43,997 nucleotides of DNA from positions 1 through 43,997 of the IMG/VR virus record IMGVR_UViG_2778261068_000003; one strand, written 5' to 3'. This DNA comes from a virus. Taxonomy: Duplodnaviria; Heunggongvirae; Uroviricota; Caudoviricetes. A program made the translations under genes and the position numbers. Shown here piece after piece: positions 12,119 to 19,879 of the stretch. Position 1 is the first letter of the stretch. Each line of letters starts with the position of its first letter. The notes below the pieces were generated by a model. The model searched no databases, had not been told where the DNA came from, and saw only the letters and a list, made by a program, of their open reading frames with translations.

Positions 12119-12306
12119 AAACGATTTGCGGGAAAAGGACAGTTAAGTAAAATCGCTGCGGGTGCTTGAGGCTATCTGTCTCAGGCATGAACACCAACGG
12201 CAGATAGATAAAAGCCCCACCCGACTATAAATCGAAGTGAGGCCCCTATATGCTCGACACATATAGATTGCCTCTTACGGACCGAAAGGTCAAGGAGAAG
12301 CAGGCT

Positions 12307-12462
12307 ATGAAGCAGCAAAAGGCGATGTTAATCGCCCTGATCGTCATCTGTATTACCGTCGTAGTGACGGCACTGGTAACGAGGAAAGATCTCTGCGAGG
12401 TACGAATCCGTACCGGACAGACGGAGGTCGCTGTCTTCACAGCTTACGAATCTGAGGAGTAA
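12307..12462 (+). CDS. hok: Hok/Gef-family type I toxin
   Basis: MKQQKAMLIALIVICITVVVTALVTRKDLCEVRIRTGQTEVAVFTAYESEE matches the Hok family pattern; AAGGAG Shine-Dalgarno; an in-frame upstream extension (12250) is mok-like; stem-loop directly after the stop. Confidence 0.85.
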   Translation: MKQQKAMLIALIVICITVVVTALVTRKDLCEVRIRTGQTEVAVFTAYESEE

Positions 12463-14403: not shown

Positions 14404-14763
14404 ATGCGTATAGAATTTGTTTTGCCTTACCCGCCGTCGGTGAACACCTACTGGCGCCGTCGTGGTGGCGTATATTTTGTATCAAAAGCCGGTGAGCGTT
14501 ATCGTCGGGATGTGGCGTTTATTGTTCGCCAGCAGCAACTGAAATTAAACCTGTCCGGTAGATTGGCAATCAGGATTATTGCAGAGCCACCGGATAAGCG
14601 CCGTCGTGATCTGGACAATATTCTGAAAGCGTCGCTGGATGCGCTGACGCATGCCGGACTGCTCATAGACGATGAGCAGTTTGATGAAATTAATATTGTG
14701 CGCGGTCAGCCCGTTTCTGGTGGGCGACTGGGGATAAAAATCACACAGCTGGGGTGTGCATGA
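14404..14763 (+). CDS. rusA: RusA-family Holliday junction resolvase
   Basis: MRIEFVLPYPPSVNTYWRRRGG...DLDNILKASLDALTHAGLLIDDEQ... is typical of RusA. Confidence 0.9.
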   Translation: MRIEFVLPYPPSVNTYWRRRGGVYFVSKAGERYRRDVAFIVRQQQLKLNLSGRLAIRIIAEPPDKRRRDLDNILKASLDALTHAGLLIDDEQFDEINIVRGQPVSGGRLGIKITQLGCA

Positions 14764-15449
14764 ATAACCAGTATTTACAGTTTGTTCGTGAGCGGCTCAT
14801 TATCGCCACCGCCAATTTGAGTGGAGCAACAAAAGGTCAGCTTGAGGCCTGGCAGGAGAATGCCATATTTGATACAGGGCGTTACAGGCGTAAAAAAATC
14901 CGGTACCGCGATGAAGTGACCGGAAAAATGATCACGCGGGATAATCCACCAATCCCGGGGAAACAATCGCAGGCGAAGGGTACGTCAGTTCCTCTGGTAA
15001 GTCCGGTTGAGTTTTCGACATCATCATGGCGGCGGGCAGTTCTGTCTCTTGAAGAACACCAGAAAGTGTGGTTGCTGTGGTGTTACAGTGGCAGCATTTG
15101 CTGGGAATATCAGATCGCGATAACTCAGTGGGCGTGGAATGAATTTAATGCTCAATCCGGTACCAGAAAAATTGCAGGGAAAACGCAGGAACGCCTGAAA
15201 AAATTAATCTGGCTGGCGGCGCAGGCAGTAAAAGCAGAACTTTGGGGTGGGGAAGGTTATGAATACCAGGAGCTGGCATTGCTGGCGGGGGTGACAACCA
15301 AAAACTGGTCCAAAACATTTACTCGTCACTGGGTTGCAATGAAACACATTTTTCACCAGTTGGATAGTGAGGCTTTATTGTTTGTGATGAGAACACGTTC
15401 AGAACAAAAGGTGGCATTTTCAAAGCAAAGTATTGCAAAAGTAGATTAA
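14760..15449 (+). CDS. putative late antiterminator (Q-like)
   Basis: ATG overlaps the rusA stop; position immediately upstream of a promoter-plus-terminator pair and the lysis genes corresponds to lambdoid Q; family assignment is mainly positional. Confidence 0.55.
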   Translation: MNNQYLQFVRERLIIATANLSGATKGQLEAWQENAIFDTGRYRRKKIRYRDEVTGKMITRDNPPIPGKQSQAKGTSVPLVSPVEFSTSSWRRAVLSLEEHQKVWLLWCYSGSICWEYQIAITQWAWNEFNAQSGTRKIAGKTQERLKKLIWLAAQAVKAELWGGEGYEYQELALLAGVTTKNWSKTFTRHWVAMKHIFHQLDSEALLFVMRTRSEQKVAFSKQSIAKVD

Positions 15450-15461: not shown

Positions 15462-15511
15462 TCATGCAAATCTGATATCTTGCCGATTTTGTATGTGATG
15501 GCAAAGTGACC

Positions 15512-15540
15512 AAACCCGCTACTGGCGGGTTTTTTGCGCC
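15512..15540 (+). terminator. tR'-like Rho-independent terminator
   Basis: AAACCCGCTACTGGCGGGTTTTTT hairpin with T-run, a short distance downstream of the putative late promoter. Confidence 0.65.
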
Positions 15541-15632
15541 CGAAAAGTGGCACAGGACGTTAAATGCGCTGGTGGTTGCGAATACTGGTCTTTCAGCTTG
15601 CTGGCCTTTTATCCCTGTGAAAACCGGCGGAT

Positions 15633-15843
15633 ATGTTGCGTCAGATAATAGAGGCCAGCAGCCGTCCGGGTGATTTGGTTGCCGACTTTTTTATGGGGTC
15701 AGGCTCCACGATAAAAGCCGCACTTTCACTGGGGGCGTCGTGCAATTGGTGTTGAGCTTGAGGCCGAACGGTTTGAGCAGACGGTGAGGGAAGTGTGTGA
15801 GGTAAACATTCCTGGCCAGTTAGCAGGATTACTTAATCAATAA
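15633..15843 (+). pseudogene. frameshifted 3' remnant of a DNA methyltransferase
   Basis: ...GDLVADFFMGSGSTIKAALSLG... (DPFxGSGTT-like motif) runs into a stop; the adjacent frame continues ...IGVELEAERFEQTVREV... (the IGxE motif); no 5' part of the gene is present. Confidence 0.5.
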
Positions 15844-15890: not shown

Positions 15891-16394
15891 AAAATGATAC
15901 GTTTTAGCGAGCTTCGGGAAAAATATGTTGAAGTTATTTCCGGTCAGGTAAATCTGCGCAAAGATCTTGCAATGCTGGTGAAGCGATTGAAAGTTTCGCT
16001 GGAAGAATCGCTGTTATTGCCGGAACGGCAGTGGGTGGATCCAGCAACAGGGAAAAAGGAAAATTATCTTCGTGTCCTGGTAGAGCGCAATGGTGACACA
16101 AAAGAGTCTGATGGAACGACTAACTCACTGTATTTTGATGAAGAGTTAGGAGTGCCCTGTTTGTTTGCGCTTACTCTGGACAGATCCCCGACATCTTTTC
16201 CGAAAACAATAATGTCAGTAGCGGTTCGCGTATCCCGTGAGCGTGATGGGTACCGGATTGCTGTTAACGGTGTGAGCGGGAAGTATGAGTCAATGGTGCC
16301 GATTGATTTTAATGATAATGATCTGGGCGAAGCCTGTGAGCTCATAAAACAAGTGATTCTTAGTGAATTAAATAACAGTTTTCCTGCCTGTTAA
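15891..16394 (+). CDS. hypothetical protein (167 aa), moron downstream of the late promoter
   Basis: Start at MIRFSELREKY with GAGGA Shine-Dalgarno; no motif recognised; at the position occupied by cargo such as stx in other lambdoid phages. Confidence 0.5.
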   Translation, partial: KMIRFSELREKYVEVISGQVNLRKDLAMLVKRLKVSLEESLLLPERQWVDPATGKKENYLRVLVERNGDTKESDGTTNSLYFDEELGVPCLFALTLDRSPTSFPKTIMSVAVRVSRERDGYRIAVNGVSGKYESMVPIDFNDNDLGEACELIKQVILSELNNSFPAC

Positions 16395-16526
16395 ATAAAA
16401 AAGGGCTGTATTTGCGGCCTTTTTCATATCTGCGCCACGCCCGGCGCACATCACATCAGATAACACCACACAAAAGGCATCCGACGCGGTGCCTTTGATG
16501 GGGTGTTTTTTTACGGGCCGCTGGTG

Positions 16527-17526
16527 ACCCTTTTTTAGATTGATTGTTATGTCTGCGTGAAATACACGCATACACTCAATTTCATTTTTTAACAACACCA
16601 TTCATTGACGCCGTTCCGATCAGGGTTGATATTTATACCTGTTTGATGACGCATGTTGATTACCACCTGTAGTTATTATTGCGATTCAAACGGTGCTGAC
16701 CGTAAGGAAAGCATCCAGAAAAAACGACTGCACACTTTATGGTATGTGCGCAGATTTTGCGTGAAGATTACAGCCACTCTCCTGGGACATCGTCTTCATT
16801 CTGCAACTGTGGCTGGTTGCAGATTACATACCATTTTTTGAGGTGGCACAGTGATGGCGTATTGTCGGTATGTCATGCCGGATGAGATGAAAGCGCAATT
16901 CATTATCACCTGAGGCGATACGTCATCACTCTGCCTCTTTGACTGAATCTGAGGTGAGCCCGCGAGGGGTGGTATCAGGCGTGGTATCACGCATACTGTT
17001 TTTTAGCGGCCAGTATGCCCCGGAATATATCCGGCACCTCGACCTTACTCTCGCGATTGTCTGCTTTTGATATGGTCTGTTTGTATTACCTTTCCGCCAT
17101 TTATATGGCGGTTTTTTTTATGCCGGATATTTACGTCAGTGAATAAAAAAGGGAGCGGGCTATTGGGGAGCCCGCCGGACAAGGTCCATTTATCGGTTCT
17201 GACATTACTGAGCGTGAACGCTGGACTGAAACGCTCAAATATCAGTGGGTCATTAGGAAAGAACTACCTCCCATTGGAGTTCCGGGAGGTGGCTTTTTAA
17301 TATCATGAGAAACTGGCAAAGTAAACATAACTATATGAAAAATATATAGTTTTTAGCTTTTTGCGAACATTTCTGATGTTATCTTCGCCGACTTATTTCA
17401 AAATTACTGTCCGTGATGGTTATCTTTAGAAGATATTTGTTTTGCATATTTTATATTTTGTTGTTTTTTTGCACGACGACAAAGTAACCAAAACTGCCAT
17501 CGGCGGTTTTTTTATATCTGAAAAGA
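16527..17526. repeat. tandem duplicated noncoding module, copy A (~1 kb)
   Basis: Begins AGATTGATTGTTATG, as does copy B at 17527; co-linear with copy B with substitutions and indels; its 3' ~100 bp resembles the pR'/tR' region after Q. Confidence 0.8.
17095..17120 (+). terminator. Rho-independent terminator inside repeat copy A
   Basis: CCGCCATTTATATGGCGG hairpin followed by TTTTTTTT. Confidence 0.6.
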
Positions 17527-18450
17527 GATTGATTGTTATGTCAGTGTGAAATATACGCATACATTCAATTTCATTTTTTAACAACACCATTCATTGACAC
17601 CGTTCCGAACCGGGTTGATATTTATACCAGTTCGATAACGCATGTTGATTACCATCTGTGGTTACTATTGTTATTCGAACAGTTGCGGACCGTAAGGAAT
17701 GCATCCAGAACGGGGGCATAGTGCCACCTGCTAACAAAAAAGCGACTATACATTTTTATGGTATGTGCGCGTGCTTGCGCGGAGGTTACAACCACAACCA
17801 CCTCTCTTTCCTCCCTCCATTCTGTAATAGTGGTTGATTACAGTTTGCATACCATTTTTTTGAGGAGATACAGTGATGGCGTATTGCTGGTCTGTCATGC
17901 CCGATGAGATAAAGCGCGACTCACAATTACTCCGTGGCAGTACGCCATCACTGTATAGCTTCATGCAGAATTTGAGGTGAGCCCGTGAGGGGTGATGCAG
18001 GGAACAGCATCACGCATGCTGTTTTGAGGCAGCAGTATGTCCCGGGATATATCCGGCACCTCAACCAGGTTCTCGCGATTGTCTGCTTTTGATATGGTCT
18101 GTTTGTATTACCTTTCCGCCATTTATATGGCGGTTTTTTATGCCGGATATTTACGTCAGTGAATAAAAAGGGGAGCGGGCTATTGGGGAGCCCGCCGGAC
18201 AAGGTCCATTTATCGGTTCTGACATTACTGAGCGTGAAAGCTGGACTGAAACGCTCTGAAATGTCATTTCAGGTCATACCAGTAAGTAAAGAACAGTCTC
18301 CCGAGGATAGAGGCGGGAGACTGGCTTTTTAATATCATAAGAAATCGCCATGGTAAATATAACTATATGAAAAATATATGGTTTTTAGCTTTTTGCGAAC
18401 GTTTCTGACGTTATCTTCGCCGACTTATTTCAAAATTCCTGTCCGTGATG
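17527..18450. repeat. tandem duplicated noncoding module, copy B
   Basis: Second copy of the same module; ends in the leader of the holin-like gene. Confidence 0.8.
18116..18139 (+). terminator. Rho-independent terminator inside repeat copy B
   Basis: Identical CCGCCATTTATATGGCGG hairpin followed by TTTTTT. Confidence 0.6.
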
Positions 18451-18491
18451 ACCAGGTTTACGGTCAGCGGCTCTTTTCATCGGATTTAATC

Positions 18492-18887
18492 ATGCACAGT
18501 TCACTGACCATTACTGGTGCGGTTGCCGCAGGCTCCACCGGAGTCACTCTCTCCACTCTTTTTCCTGAAGCAACTCCGGCGGTGGTGATTTGCTCGCTCG
18601 CCGGAACGGCGCTTTATGTTCTTTCATCCCGCCCGCACAGGGTCTGGAGGCAGATTCTGTTTGCCCTGATTTCTTTTATCGGGGGTATACACAGTGCTGA
18701 AACAGTCTCTGAAATTATCGCGGCGGTGATTAATGCCTGGCTGGTAAAAATTGCGCCGGGTGCATCAGTTCATGTCACGCCCGGGATCGGGGCGCTGGTG
18801 GCTTCAACAATCTGCGTCAGTGTTCTGTTGCGTGTTATGGCGAAATACCAGGATGGCAGGCAGACGAAGAAGGGAGAGGAACAATGA
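18492..18887 (+). CDS. putative holin-like membrane protein
   Basis: Several hydrophobic helices; first gene of the lysis cluster; start placed at 18492 because the upstream in-frame extension lies in the repeat and is interrupted by a stop in copy A; weak Shine-Dalgarno. Confidence 0.45.
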   Translation: MHSSLTITGAVAAGSTGVTLSTLFPEATPAVVICSLAGTALYVLSSRPHRVWRQILFALISFIGGIHSAETVSEIIAAVINAWLVKIAPGASVHVTPGIGALVASTICVSVLLRVMAKYQDGRQTKKGEEQ

Positions 18888-19219
18888 ACTGGGAAAAACT
18901 GGTGCTTTCCGCAAATGCTGTTGTTTGCCTGCTGATAGTACTCCGCCTGATGTTCTATCAGAAAAAGGCGGGCAGCTATCGTTTTATGTACTCCCTGCTT
19001 GCGTGGATGGTGATTGTTGCCGCCGGATGGACAGCAGTACGCATTTTTTATGGTGAATATTCCGGGGCAGATCCGGCAGAGCTTTTTCTGAATTTTTCTT
19101 TCTGTCTGGCTGTCTGGGGAGCTGGCGGAAATATTGCAAAAGCCACTCACTGGAGTGTGCAAAACAGAAAAGTAAAAAGAAGGGGGCAGAGTGAAAAAAA
19201 CGAAAGAGATAATTTTTGA
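18884..19219 (+). CDS. putative holin/antiholin-like membrane protein
   Basis: 111 aa with two or three predicted transmembrane helices and a charged C-terminus; ATG overlaps the upstream stop. Confidence 0.5.
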   Translation: MNWEKLVLSANAVVCLLIVLRLMFYQKKAGSYRFMYSLLAWMVIVAAGWTAVRIFYGEYSGADPAELFLNFSFCLAVWGAGGNIAKATHWSVQNRKVKRRGQSEKNERDNF

Positions 19220-19739
19220 TGCCATCCTGGGAAAAGAGGGCGGCTATGTGGATCACCCTGACGACAAGGGAGGTCCAACAAAGTGGGGCGTGACGCAGAC
19301 GACCGCCCGCGCCCACGGATACCGTGGCGATATGCGCGATTTAACCCGCGAACAGGCACTGGAAATTCTTGAGGCTGATTACTGGTACGGACCACGCTTT
19401 GATCAGGTGGCGGCATTATCCCCTGATATTGCGGCGGAGATGTGCGATACGGGCGTCAACATGGGGCCGACTGTGGCGTCCAGAATGCTTCAGCGCTGGC
19501 TGAACGTATTCAATCTGAGCGGGAAGCTGTATCCCGATATGGACACGGACGGACGCACTGGCCCACGCACGATTAACGCATTACGTGCGTATCTGGAAAA
19601 GCGCGGCCGGGAAGGCGAAATGGTGCTGTTAACAGCACTGAACTGTACTCAGGGCGACCGCTATCTGGAGCTGGCAGAGAAACGGGAGGCTAACGAGTCG
19701 TTTGTCTACGGCTGGATGAAAGAGCGTGTGGCTGTATGA
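19191..19739 (+). CDS. endolysin (GH108-like domain plus PG_binding_3-like domain)
   Basis: ...EGGYVDHPDDKGGPTKWGVTQ... (GH108-like motif) and a C-terminal peptidoglycan-binding-like region; GTG start with AGGGGG Shine-Dalgarno. Confidence 0.85.
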   Translation: MKKTKEIIFDAILGKEGGYVDHPDDKGGPTKWGVTQTTARAHGYRGDMRDLTREQALEILEADYWYGPRFDQVAALSPDIAAEMCDTGVNMGPTVASRMLQRWLNVFNLSGKLYPDMDTDGRTGPRTINALRAYLEKRGREGEMVLLTALNCTQGDRYLELAEKREANESFVYGWMKERVAV

Positions 19740-19879
19740 AGCGAAAACACTGGACACACAGAATGCCGCGAACGGCGGCGAAATGGGCACTGGTAGCGAT
19801 ACTGGTGCCTTTTTTATTGCTCAAAAAACGAAAGAACGGAGGTACGTATGTACGCACTGAAAAAAATTACGGTAACTGA
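19736..19879 (+). CDS. putative small membrane protein (47 aa), possible spanin remnant
   Basis: ATG overlaps the endolysin stop (ATGA); basic N-terminus then hydrophobic WALVAILVPFLLL; below the ORF-track cutoff. Confidence 0.25.
   Translation: MKRKHWTHRMPRTAAKWALVAILVPFLLLKKRKNGGTYVRTEKNYGN

Follow-up and report, generated by a model that had tools for sequence, protein, structure and literature searches.

What fills the gap between the antiterminator region and the lysis genes of this lambdoid prophage, and why is it there twice? The question is raised by a stretch of viral DNA of 43,997 nt (IMG/VR record IMGVR_UViG_2778261068_000003, positions 1 to 43,997; "the window" hereafter denotes this whole stretch), all of which is a lambdoid prophage. 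Its host is Escherichia albertii; the exact sequence of the holin carries that species name. About 2.1 kb without a credible gene separate an open reading frame (ORF) of 166-178 amino acids (aa) from the first holin gene, and most of this interval (16527-18450) is made up of a cassette of roughly 0.9 kb in two tandem copies. A moron, as described by Hendrix and colleagues, is an autonomous promoter-gene-terminator unit among the late genes that is absent from close relatives. We think it probable, with considerable room for doubt, that each copy of the cassette is a protein-free moron, situated between tR' and the holin gene and carrying convergent candidate small-RNA genes.

An earlier note on this DNA, made from the letters alone, had described two co-linear copies of about 1 kb, and this is borne out. 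A repeat finder returned ten co-linear families of direct repeats with a start-to-start spacing of 989-1032 bp, and pairwise alignment of copy A (16537-17420) with copy B (17526-18450, which continues toward the holin start at 18492) gives about 80-85% identity, 80.5% across ~935 columns, with numerous indels of 1, 2, 3, 8 and 28 nt. Tandem Repeats Finder reported nothing for the repeat, because its period exceeds the 500-nt limit of that program. Most of the shared elements that had been listed are indeed present in both copies, namely the conserved 5' block AGATTGATTG...TTCATTGAC, the 9-bp closing stem ATGGTATGT/ACATACCAT with its T-run, a long inverted repeat, and an identical terminator CCGCCATTTATATGGCGG with a T-run at 17094-17119 and 18116-18139. 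The arms of the inverted repeat in copy B are 27 nt long and 85% complementary (17861-17887 and 17937-17963); the 3' arm of copy A (TACGTCATCACTC) is imperfect, yet it pairs through a G.U pair. Among the statements to be corrected is the one on the loop: the ~80 nt enclosed by the closing stem were said to differ completely between the copies, whereas these stretches align, sub-helices are kept via compensatory changes, and only ~25 nt in the middle are unalignable between A and B.

Two further versions of the sequence allow the copies to be read comparatively. A single-copy version, which the earlier note had proposed to look for by BLASTN, exists in a different E. albertii prophage, whose Q-like gene is of the DUF1133 type (locus L035, GCA_023830615.1). 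There, one copy (copy C, L035 5075-6000) sits between a pR'/tR'-like stretch and an identical holin; its identity is 89.8% with copy A (over L035:5075-5959) and 81.6% with copy B. A more distant homologue, 69% identical, is found on the E. albertii plasmid pEA7_2 (NZ_CP117564.1; L038 4001-4345). It corresponds to the right half of the cassette only (window 17024-17381), that is, to the terminator T2 and the minus-strand candidate RNA described below, which indicates that the two halves are separable. Consensus folds of the plus-strand elements thus draw on three independent versions (A, B and C), and those of the minus-strand element on four to five.

As to protein-coding content, none of the ORFs within 16527-18450 exceeds 84 aa, none of the small ones retains both frame and length among A, B, C and the plasmid, and none has a Pfam or NCBIfam match. 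The claim that no ORF is conserved in both copies is not quite right, as one pair of similar ORFs in the same frame is common to A and B (17015-17146, 43 aa, and 18037-18162, 41 aa). This pair is unlikely to be a gene, since it passes through terminator T2, has only 23 codons in L035 and is broken up in the plasmid. The substitutions have neither a 3-nt periodicity nor, in any ungapped block, an excess at third positions, and most A/B/C indels would shift a reading frame. Readings of the small ORFs as genes were dropped on account of the missing periodicity, the truncation in relatives and the absence of family matches. Furthermore, no coding sequence similar to the unit turned up among E. coli genomes, phages and plasmids, and the region holds no transposase, no terminal inverted repeats and no database match to insertion sequence (IS) elements. 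Database matches expose the unit neither as a degraded coding remnant nor as an insertion element with its own transposase, two of the outcomes that had been named as speaking against small RNAs. A tRNA cluster of the kind known from lambdoid late regions, already rejected in the earlier note, is ruled out as well, with 0 tRNA or tmRNA genes in the whole window (ARAGORN) and no Rfam tRNA match. An Rfam cmscan of 16300-18550 at E<=10 returned no family among STnc100, AgvB, AsxR, Esr41, IsrK, C4 and sok; its top result there was Phe_leader, whose 26.7 bits stay below the gathering score of 55.

The element with the best support is encoded on the minus strand, and it owes this rank to the plasmid copy, which brings real divergence. 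The best-supported RNA is thus on the strand that the earlier note did not consider: it overlooked both the minus-strand terminator that each copy has (stems 17176-17154 and 18196-18174) and the candidate RNA gene ended by that terminator. This candidate, RNA-M, spans 17145-17335 (minus strand, ~190 nt, with a presumed start) in copy A, where the U-run after the terminator stem lies at 17150-17145, and 18165-18367 (minus strand) in copy B, with the U-run at 18169-18165. Immediately upstream of RNA-M-A is a promoter-like site (17339-17367, minus strand) composed of TTCGCA (17367-17362), a 17-nt spacer and TATTTT (17344-17339); its counterpart in copy B is at ~18371-18399 on the same strand. Both hexamers are invariant in 5/5 versions in the alignment, and the spacer measures 17 nt, or 16 nt in the plasmid copy. 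The predicted layout consists of a 5' hairpin that shows a G-C to A-U switch, the complement of a hairpin termed T3, an unpaired GUUCUUUCCU, a long hairpin, AACCGAUAAAUGGAC and an intrinsic terminator. The terminator reads GGCGGGC...GCCCGCU, CCC and U6 in the prophage and GCGGGUC...GACCUGC, A and U6 on the plasmid. The unpaired GUUCUUUCCU, which is C/U-rich, and AACCGAUAAAUGGAC are invariant or nearly so.

Over five sequences including the plasmid, the RNA-M fold comprises 43 pairs that are 94.9% paired, with 7 changed on both sides. Only 1/500 shuffles reaches this number, and controls in which the pairing partners were slid are 35-53% paired. The strand is indicated by the wobble pairs: 28/215 cells (13%) are G.U, which would be A.C on the plus strand, where pairing is ~84%. 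Searched with a covariance model of RNA-M (R1), the window yields exactly two copies, 17141-17299 and 18161-18330, both on the minus strand. RNA-M-B ends 327 nt upstream of the holin start codon and begins ~125 nt upstream of it.

Beside the RNA-M promoter-like site, a second candidate (TTTACT, 17-nt spacer, TGnTATTAA, ~17330-17302) was rejected, as its spacing is destroyed by a 6-nt deletion in the plasmid. A plus-strand promoter-like site (TAAACA, 17-nt spacer, TATAGT; 17322-17350) overlaps the RNA-M promoter region, and the near-palindrome AACTATATGAAAAATATATAGTT surrounds it at 17330-17352. The segment 17322-17352 may hold two promoters that diverge or overlap, or else a site bound by a regulator, just upstream of the holin leader.

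Opposite RNA-M, each copy carries the terminator-like hairpin T3 on the plus strand: T3-A (17264-17298) is CTACCTCCC...GGGAGGTGG followed by C and T5, and T3-B (18294-18330) is CAGTCTCCCG...CGGGAGACTG followed by GC and T5. Its stem covaries, from CCTCCC/GGGAGG in A to GTCTCCCG/CGGGAGAC in B and CGCTCG/CGAGGG on the plasmid. In the plasmid copy the T-run is gone and the hairpin is retained, which argues that the hairpin serves the minus-strand RNA.

On the plus strand, the left half of each copy contains a candidate RNA termed RNA1. In copy A an AT-rich conserved block (16537-16604) precedes a promoter-like site at 16605-16633 (TTGACG, 17-nt spacer, GATATT), known from a consensus scan only; the site in copy B (17594-17622; TTGACA, 17-nt spacer, GATATT) has 10/12 consensus matches, and the hexamers are retained at the equivalent place in all versions. 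RNA1-A would extend from 16640 to 16839 (plus strand, ~200 nt), its start being placed from the promoter-like site, and RNA1-B from 17629 to 17861 (plus strand), with a 28-nt insertion in the linker and a terminal U7. The predicted fold begins with a 5' hairpin domain and a C-C[GUAA]G-G hairpin with a GUAA tetraloop, followed by an A-rich linker and a four-way junction closed by AUGGUAUGU/ACAUACCAU, after which U6-7 completes a terminator, T1. Folded jointly, A, B and C share 56 pairs, with 96.4% of cells paired and 8 pairs changed on both sides, a number reached by 2/500 shuffles, while controls slid by 1-3 columns are 26-44% paired with 0-3 such pairs. G.U accounts for 22/168 cells (13%) and no unpaired cell is A.C, so that the fold belongs to the plus strand. 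One hairpin, UCUGCAAC/GUUGCAGA, occurs in three distinct compensated versions. Its loop, GUGGCUG, is complementary over 7 nt to the loop of the neighbouring arm, CAGCCAC, in A and C, and in copy B both loops have changed together (GUGGUUG/CAACCAC); with a single covarying position, this no more than hints at contact between the loops or at an alternative pairing. Taken alone, RNA1-A folds with z = -3.4. A minus-strand terminator-like site at 16749-16730 was dropped, as it is not kept in copy B.

RNA1 is followed by a second plus-strand element, RNA2. RNA2-A (16840-17119, plus strand, ~280 nt) opens with a 25-bp helix (16840-16940) that buries a GAGG motif together with GUG/AUG codons; 3' of the helix follow a multibranch domain closed by GAGGUG/CACCUC and the T2 terminator CCGCCAT...ATGGCGG (stem 17094-17111, T-run 17112-17119). 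RNA2-B (17862-18139, plus strand) has the 27-nt helix arms given above and its own T2 (stem 18116-18133, T-run 18134-18139). The consensus fold has 84 pairs, with 97.2% of cells paired and 6 pairs changed on both sides, and G.U makes up 11% of the cells. The terminators of RNA2 and RNA-M converge 26 nt apart without overlap.

Taken together, 21 both-side-changed pairs over three elements compare with 0-3 in slid controls, 95-97% pairing compares with 26-53%, and pairing of RNA1, RNA2 and RNA-M on the opposite strand would drop to about 83-88%. Structure conserved through compensatory substitutions on defined strands, the generic mark of a structured RNA, is thus seen in the unit across the 3-5 available sequences, and the earlier suggestion of structured RNAs finds in silico support in the consensus folds of A, B and C and, for one element, in the plasmid homologue. 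Promoter- and terminator-like sites lie at equivalent positions in both copies, as consensus matches only. That the unit is transcribed, where the RNAs end and what they might regulate is inferred from these features.

Several observations nonetheless weigh against convergent small-RNA genes. The shuffle statistics are weak and are inflated by the relatedness among few versions. Support is weaker for RNA2, for which 28/500 shuffles do as well and which is therefore borderline, and the fold of RNA1-B taken alone is unexceptional (z = -0.9). T1 is branched, which is unusual for an intrinsic terminator, and promoter-like sites are not enriched in the region, where 5 were found against 6.0 expected in shuffled sequence. 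A core of 187 nt (17050-17236 / 18072-18256) is ~98% identical between A and B, and this may reflect gene conversion rather than selection. Finally, no target was identified: a search by seed complement gave nothing convincing, and pairing the candidate RNAs by RNAduplex with every translation-initiation region of the window produced only long-loop duplexes devoid of meaning. A match of 8 contiguous bp joins the conserved GUUCUUUC of RNA-M to AACGAAAGAAC (19827-19837), just 5' of a 93-aa ORF at 19848; it is probably due to chance.

It is in this light that other explanations have to be judged. The one that survives best, though we hold it to be unlikely, is that the unit acts only in cis, as a leader of the late operon: a cascade of the terminators T1-T3 with elements for RNase III processing or stability, relevant solely inside the Q-antiterminated transcript and containing no independent small-RNA genes. 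The cassette does lie wholly between tR' and the holin gene in the orientation of the late operon, terminator-like hairpins number three per copy on the plus strand, the 25-bp helix looks like a substrate of RNase III, and the promoter calls are consensus matches only. Yet the minus-strand terminator of RNA-M and its strand-specific G.U pairs would make no sense in a plus-strand leader, the -35 and -10 hexamers are retained in all versions, and on the plasmid the RNA-M half is kept in the absence of a late operon, with the T-run of T3 lost.

Another reading would make the cassette simply decaying junk, remnants of former moron genes or untranslated regions that recombination has carried along and whose apparent structure is a by-product of terminators and close relatedness. 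Its distribution is very narrow. Neither megablast nor blastn found it in 5,426 complete E. coli genomes, where only the flanking spacer (16416-16537) matches, or in 50,697 INPHARED phage records, and the sole blastn match in PLSDB is the one E. albertii plasmid. Exact-pattern scans of IMG/VR with four conserved 22-25-mers found none; a 19-mer gave 9 matches there that were rejected as chance, their flanks being without similarity. Two Joint Genome Institute (JGI) metagenome scans gave no match, and scanning GTDB species representatives with the core as a pseudo-protein translation yielded only a spurious match in Riflebacteria. Related E. coli prophages that have the flanking spacer, Q and the holin family in common with the window lack the cassette, as do relatives of Q and of the endolysin in E. 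coli, and no diverged cassette was found in Citrobacter braakii and a Logan contig, whose holins are 79% identical, or in other relatives of the holin. Absence from close relatives at the same position, as expected of a moron, is thus seen for the unit in these comparisons. In Citrobacter braakii (CP077405.1; L042 3031-5001), ~2 kb extend from a DUF1133 Q-like gene to the 79%-identical holin; this stretch contains one 72-aa ORF and is unrelated to the cassette.

On the plasmid pEA7_2 the homologue adjoins the 3' end of a ycgJ-family gene (L038 4385-4740), the 5' part of which was removed by insertion of ISEc12 (IS21-like), and a RelE/ParE-Phd toxin-antitoxin pair flanks the other side; in other plasmids with ycgJ the element was not found. 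Decay would agree with the restriction to a few E. albertii prophages and one plasmid, with the mosaic, gene-conversion-like character of the region (for instance, a swapped loop in copy A of locus L015), with the position of the plasmid copy next to a truncated gene, and with the small number of independent sequences. However, slid controls do not come near the 21 both-side-changed pairs, hairpins are retained between versions that are only 69% identical, similarity to coding sequence is lacking, and ycgJ plasmids without the element exist. We therefore regard junk as improbable.

About equally doubtful is a more ambitious idea, in which RNA1 and RNA2 together (~480 nt) would be no ordinary base-pairing small RNA but a large RNA of a new class, structured up to the tertiary level. 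As a switch that senses a ligand or a protein, or as something akin to a ribozyme, it would choose between termination at T1 and read-through to the lysis genes. It is prompted by the GUAA tetraloop, by the closing stem of the junction doubling as a terminator and by the covarying 7-nt loop complementarity. A type I toxin-antitoxin locus, in which a plus-strand toxic peptide would be silenced by the helix-buried ribosome-binding site and RNA-M would be the antitoxin, seems very improbable: GAGG and GUG/AUG codons are sequestered in the 25-bp helix, the 41-43 aa ORF of A and B has a hydrophobic tail, a hok/sok locus lies elsewhere in the window and tandem duplication is frequent among type I systems, but the peptide behind the buried start is 17-35 aa long, variable in length and not hydrophobic, the 43-aa ORF crosses T2 and is truncated in L035 and interrupted on the plasmid, the convergent RNAs neither overlap nor share extended complementarity (only the intramolecular helix arms appear as inverted repeats), and there is no match to a toxin family.

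If each unit is indeed a protein-free moron with convergent small-RNA genes, its action could be pictured as follows. A sigma-70-like promoter on the plus strand would drive a highly structured RNA, which would either stop at the branched T1 (RNA1, ~200 nt) or continue via the 25-bp helix and the multibranch domain to T2 (RNA1 plus RNA2, ~480 nt), and a second promoter on the opposite strand would drive the ~190-nt RNA-M up to its own terminator. The lysogen would produce these RNAs without need of Q, and they might act as regulatory RNAs, the unpaired GUUCUUUCCU and AACCGAUAAAUGGAC of RNA-M being the kind of stretch that base-pairing small RNAs use. Upon induction, Q-modified polymerase would read through T1, T2 and T3, and RNA-M would then be perfectly antisense to the leader of the lysis mRNA. 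A helix as long as 25 bp is plausibly cut by RNase III, so that the helix of RNA2 may be a processing site in this leader. Antisense pairing or RNase III cleavage could tune, time or lower the expression of the lysis genes, or else damp leaky read-through.

How did the two copies come to stand side by side? Between them lie 105 nt (17421-17525, plus strand) that form a tR'-like terminator remnant, with a stem at 17490-17510 followed by a T-run, and with GAAAAG abutting copy B. The earlier note had seen here a second, degenerate version of the pR'/tR'-like region that follows Q. The tR'-like remnant stands, while the resemblance to the 16416-16536 spacer is minimal (16 nt at 81%). The junction GAAAAG|AGATTGATTG between remnant and copy B is identical to the one before the single copy in L035. 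Copy A is nearer to the single-copy allele of a different prophage (90%) than to its neighbour B. Homology among B, C and the plasmid extends up to ...AAACCTGGT, and the right end of copy A, shorter than those of B and C, is truncated before this point. In L015, copy A contains a swapped loop-and-hairpin segment identical to L035. From these four observations, it is simplest to suppose that illegitimate or unequal recombination fused two late regions that had each carried an allele of the cassette, and that patchy gene conversion followed. The proposal of an origin by recombination between late regions is thus supported by the allele identities, the remnant junction and the existence of cassette-free E. 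coli relatives.

The locus is also present in the assemblies GCA_012304025.1 (identical to the window), GCA_009932275.1, GCA_027567455.1 and GCA_039693505.1 and in several SRA assemblies, and copy B is 100% identical in four E. albertii assemblies or contigs besides the window. Many short-read contigs, from several runs, stop inside the cassette, mostly in or near the 98% core, as a collapsed repeat would give (L013, L014, L016, L018-L020, L024-L030, L033, L034 and L037). Because tandem copies break assemblies, copy number in draft genomes is uncertain.

The genes around the cassette are those of a lambdoid late region. Upstream are RusA (14404-14763) and the antiterminator Q (PF06323, profile match E = 6e-89; 14754-15449, plus strand). 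Short overlapping ORFs 3' of Q, at 15506-15755, represent a broken DNA methyltransferase, the gene for which is intact at this place in E. coli C5 (H42). The ORF of 166-178 aa (15858/15894-16394) lies between Q and the cassette and belongs to no known family; its 166-aa version (15894-16394) has no Pfam or NCBIfam match and accompanies copy A in every case among the E. albertii contigs. It is followed by the spacer with terminator-like hairpins (16416-16536, plus strand), which is outside the repeated unit. As 16416-16537 this spacer recurs at 91-93% identity in 95 complete E. coli genomes (compare L001 4001-4118), and in E. coli C7 a spacer like it directly abuts a PF16931-type holin gene with no cassette between; the spacer may thus be a conserved element in its own right, a leader or a terminator. 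Downstream, copy B runs uninterrupted into the holin leader (18451-18491), followed on the plus strand by the holins PF16931 (18492-18887) and PF05449 (18884-19219) and a GH108 endolysin with a PG_binding_3 domain (19191-19739).

Two RNA-controlled modules of described types are found elsewhere in the window. On the minus strand, Rfam places a C4 antisense RNA at 868-951, its a1/b1 target at 1014-1066 and IsrK at 977-1053, and the segment 868-1066 is a P1/P7- or Gifsy-1-type RNA-controlled antirepressor or immunity module within a lambdoid prophage. A full-length sok antitoxin RNA (Rfam, 105 bits) lies at 12160-12309 on the plus strand, and a Hok/Gef gene is called at the matching position in the window-identical locus L011; this is a type I toxin-antitoxin of the prophage early region.

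The accessory RNAs of E. albertii, an emerging pathogen, are essentially unexplored, and the cassette offers two or three candidate RNA families that current libraries do not detect. The allele series, with a single copy, two stacked alleles and a minus-strand gene on a plasmid, is a handy system for the evolution of RNAs by recombination, and is also suited to asking whether a small RNA antisense to the late leader modulates lysis. On the practical side, the 98%-identical core breaks short-read assemblies at this locus.

The closest parallels are the small RNAs of the lysis region in pathogenic E. coli, where Pas, AgvB, AsxR and StxS tie phage carriage to virulence and metabolism. The Hfq-dependent PasA and PasC (EcOnc51/52) of enteropathogenic and enterohaemorrhagic E. 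coli (EPEC/EHEC) lie directly beside the holin-lysozyme operon, in EPEC on the opposite strand, and PasA, PasC and PasD1 are "typically located directly adjacent" to this operon, with copies that are reported never to be tandem (PMC8550237; bioRxiv 10.64898/2026.05.13.724894). In EPEC E2348/69, PasA (NC_011601.1 743499-743415) is on the strand opposite the flanking esterase and holin genes and has its own promoter and an intrinsic terminator; the PP2 prophage of this strain has the same Q family as the window. RNA-M shares the PasA layout and, like it, sits in a lambdoid prophage beside the holin-lysozyme operon, and in both cases variants appear to have spread through recombination between prophages. 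The differences are that RNA-M has ~190 nt as opposed to the 79-85 nt of Pas, and that two alleles are adjacent here, while Pas copies are never tandem. Furthermore, blastn (word size 7) against the E2348/69 Pas locus (L039) matched only the Q gene, and the RNA-M model R1 found nothing by cmsearch at the pasA, pasC and pasD1 loci (L039, L040, L041; best E = 1.3).

PasD/STnc100, AgvB, AsxR and Esr41 are small RNAs of 70-240 nt on either strand in the Q-to-lysis interval of Shiga toxin (Stx)-like prophages, and PasD (~172 nt) is co-oriented with the late genes, as RNA1 is. None of these families, however, gives an Rfam match to the region in the scan at E<=10. StxS of Stx phages is a short pR'-tR' transcript, made in the lysogen by termination upstream of the lysis and toxin genes (PMC7547250). 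The window keeps a tR'-like remnant between its copies, but StxS is a product of pR' itself, whereas the candidate RNAs are downstream of tR' and have promoter-like sites of their own. With respect to mechanism, the lambda OOP RNA and PaQ anti-Q are short RNAs directed against a major operon, whose pairing with the mRNA leads to RNase III-dependent down-regulation. The same mechanism would apply to RNA-M and the late leader as pictured here; OOP and PaQ, however, are sited at the cII and Q genes and have no homology to RNA-M. From classical morons, which encode proteins, the cassette differs in apparently carrying RNAs only, and in doing so as two stacked alleles. With no sequence or model similarity to Pas, no Rfam match and a tandem arrangement never seen for Pas, the cassette, as judged from comparative sequence data, resembles known prophage small-RNA loci in position and belongs to no described family. 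That unrelated sequences occupy the same niche as the small RNAs of E. coli suggests that the interval before the lysis genes has been colonised repeatedly by regulatory RNAs.

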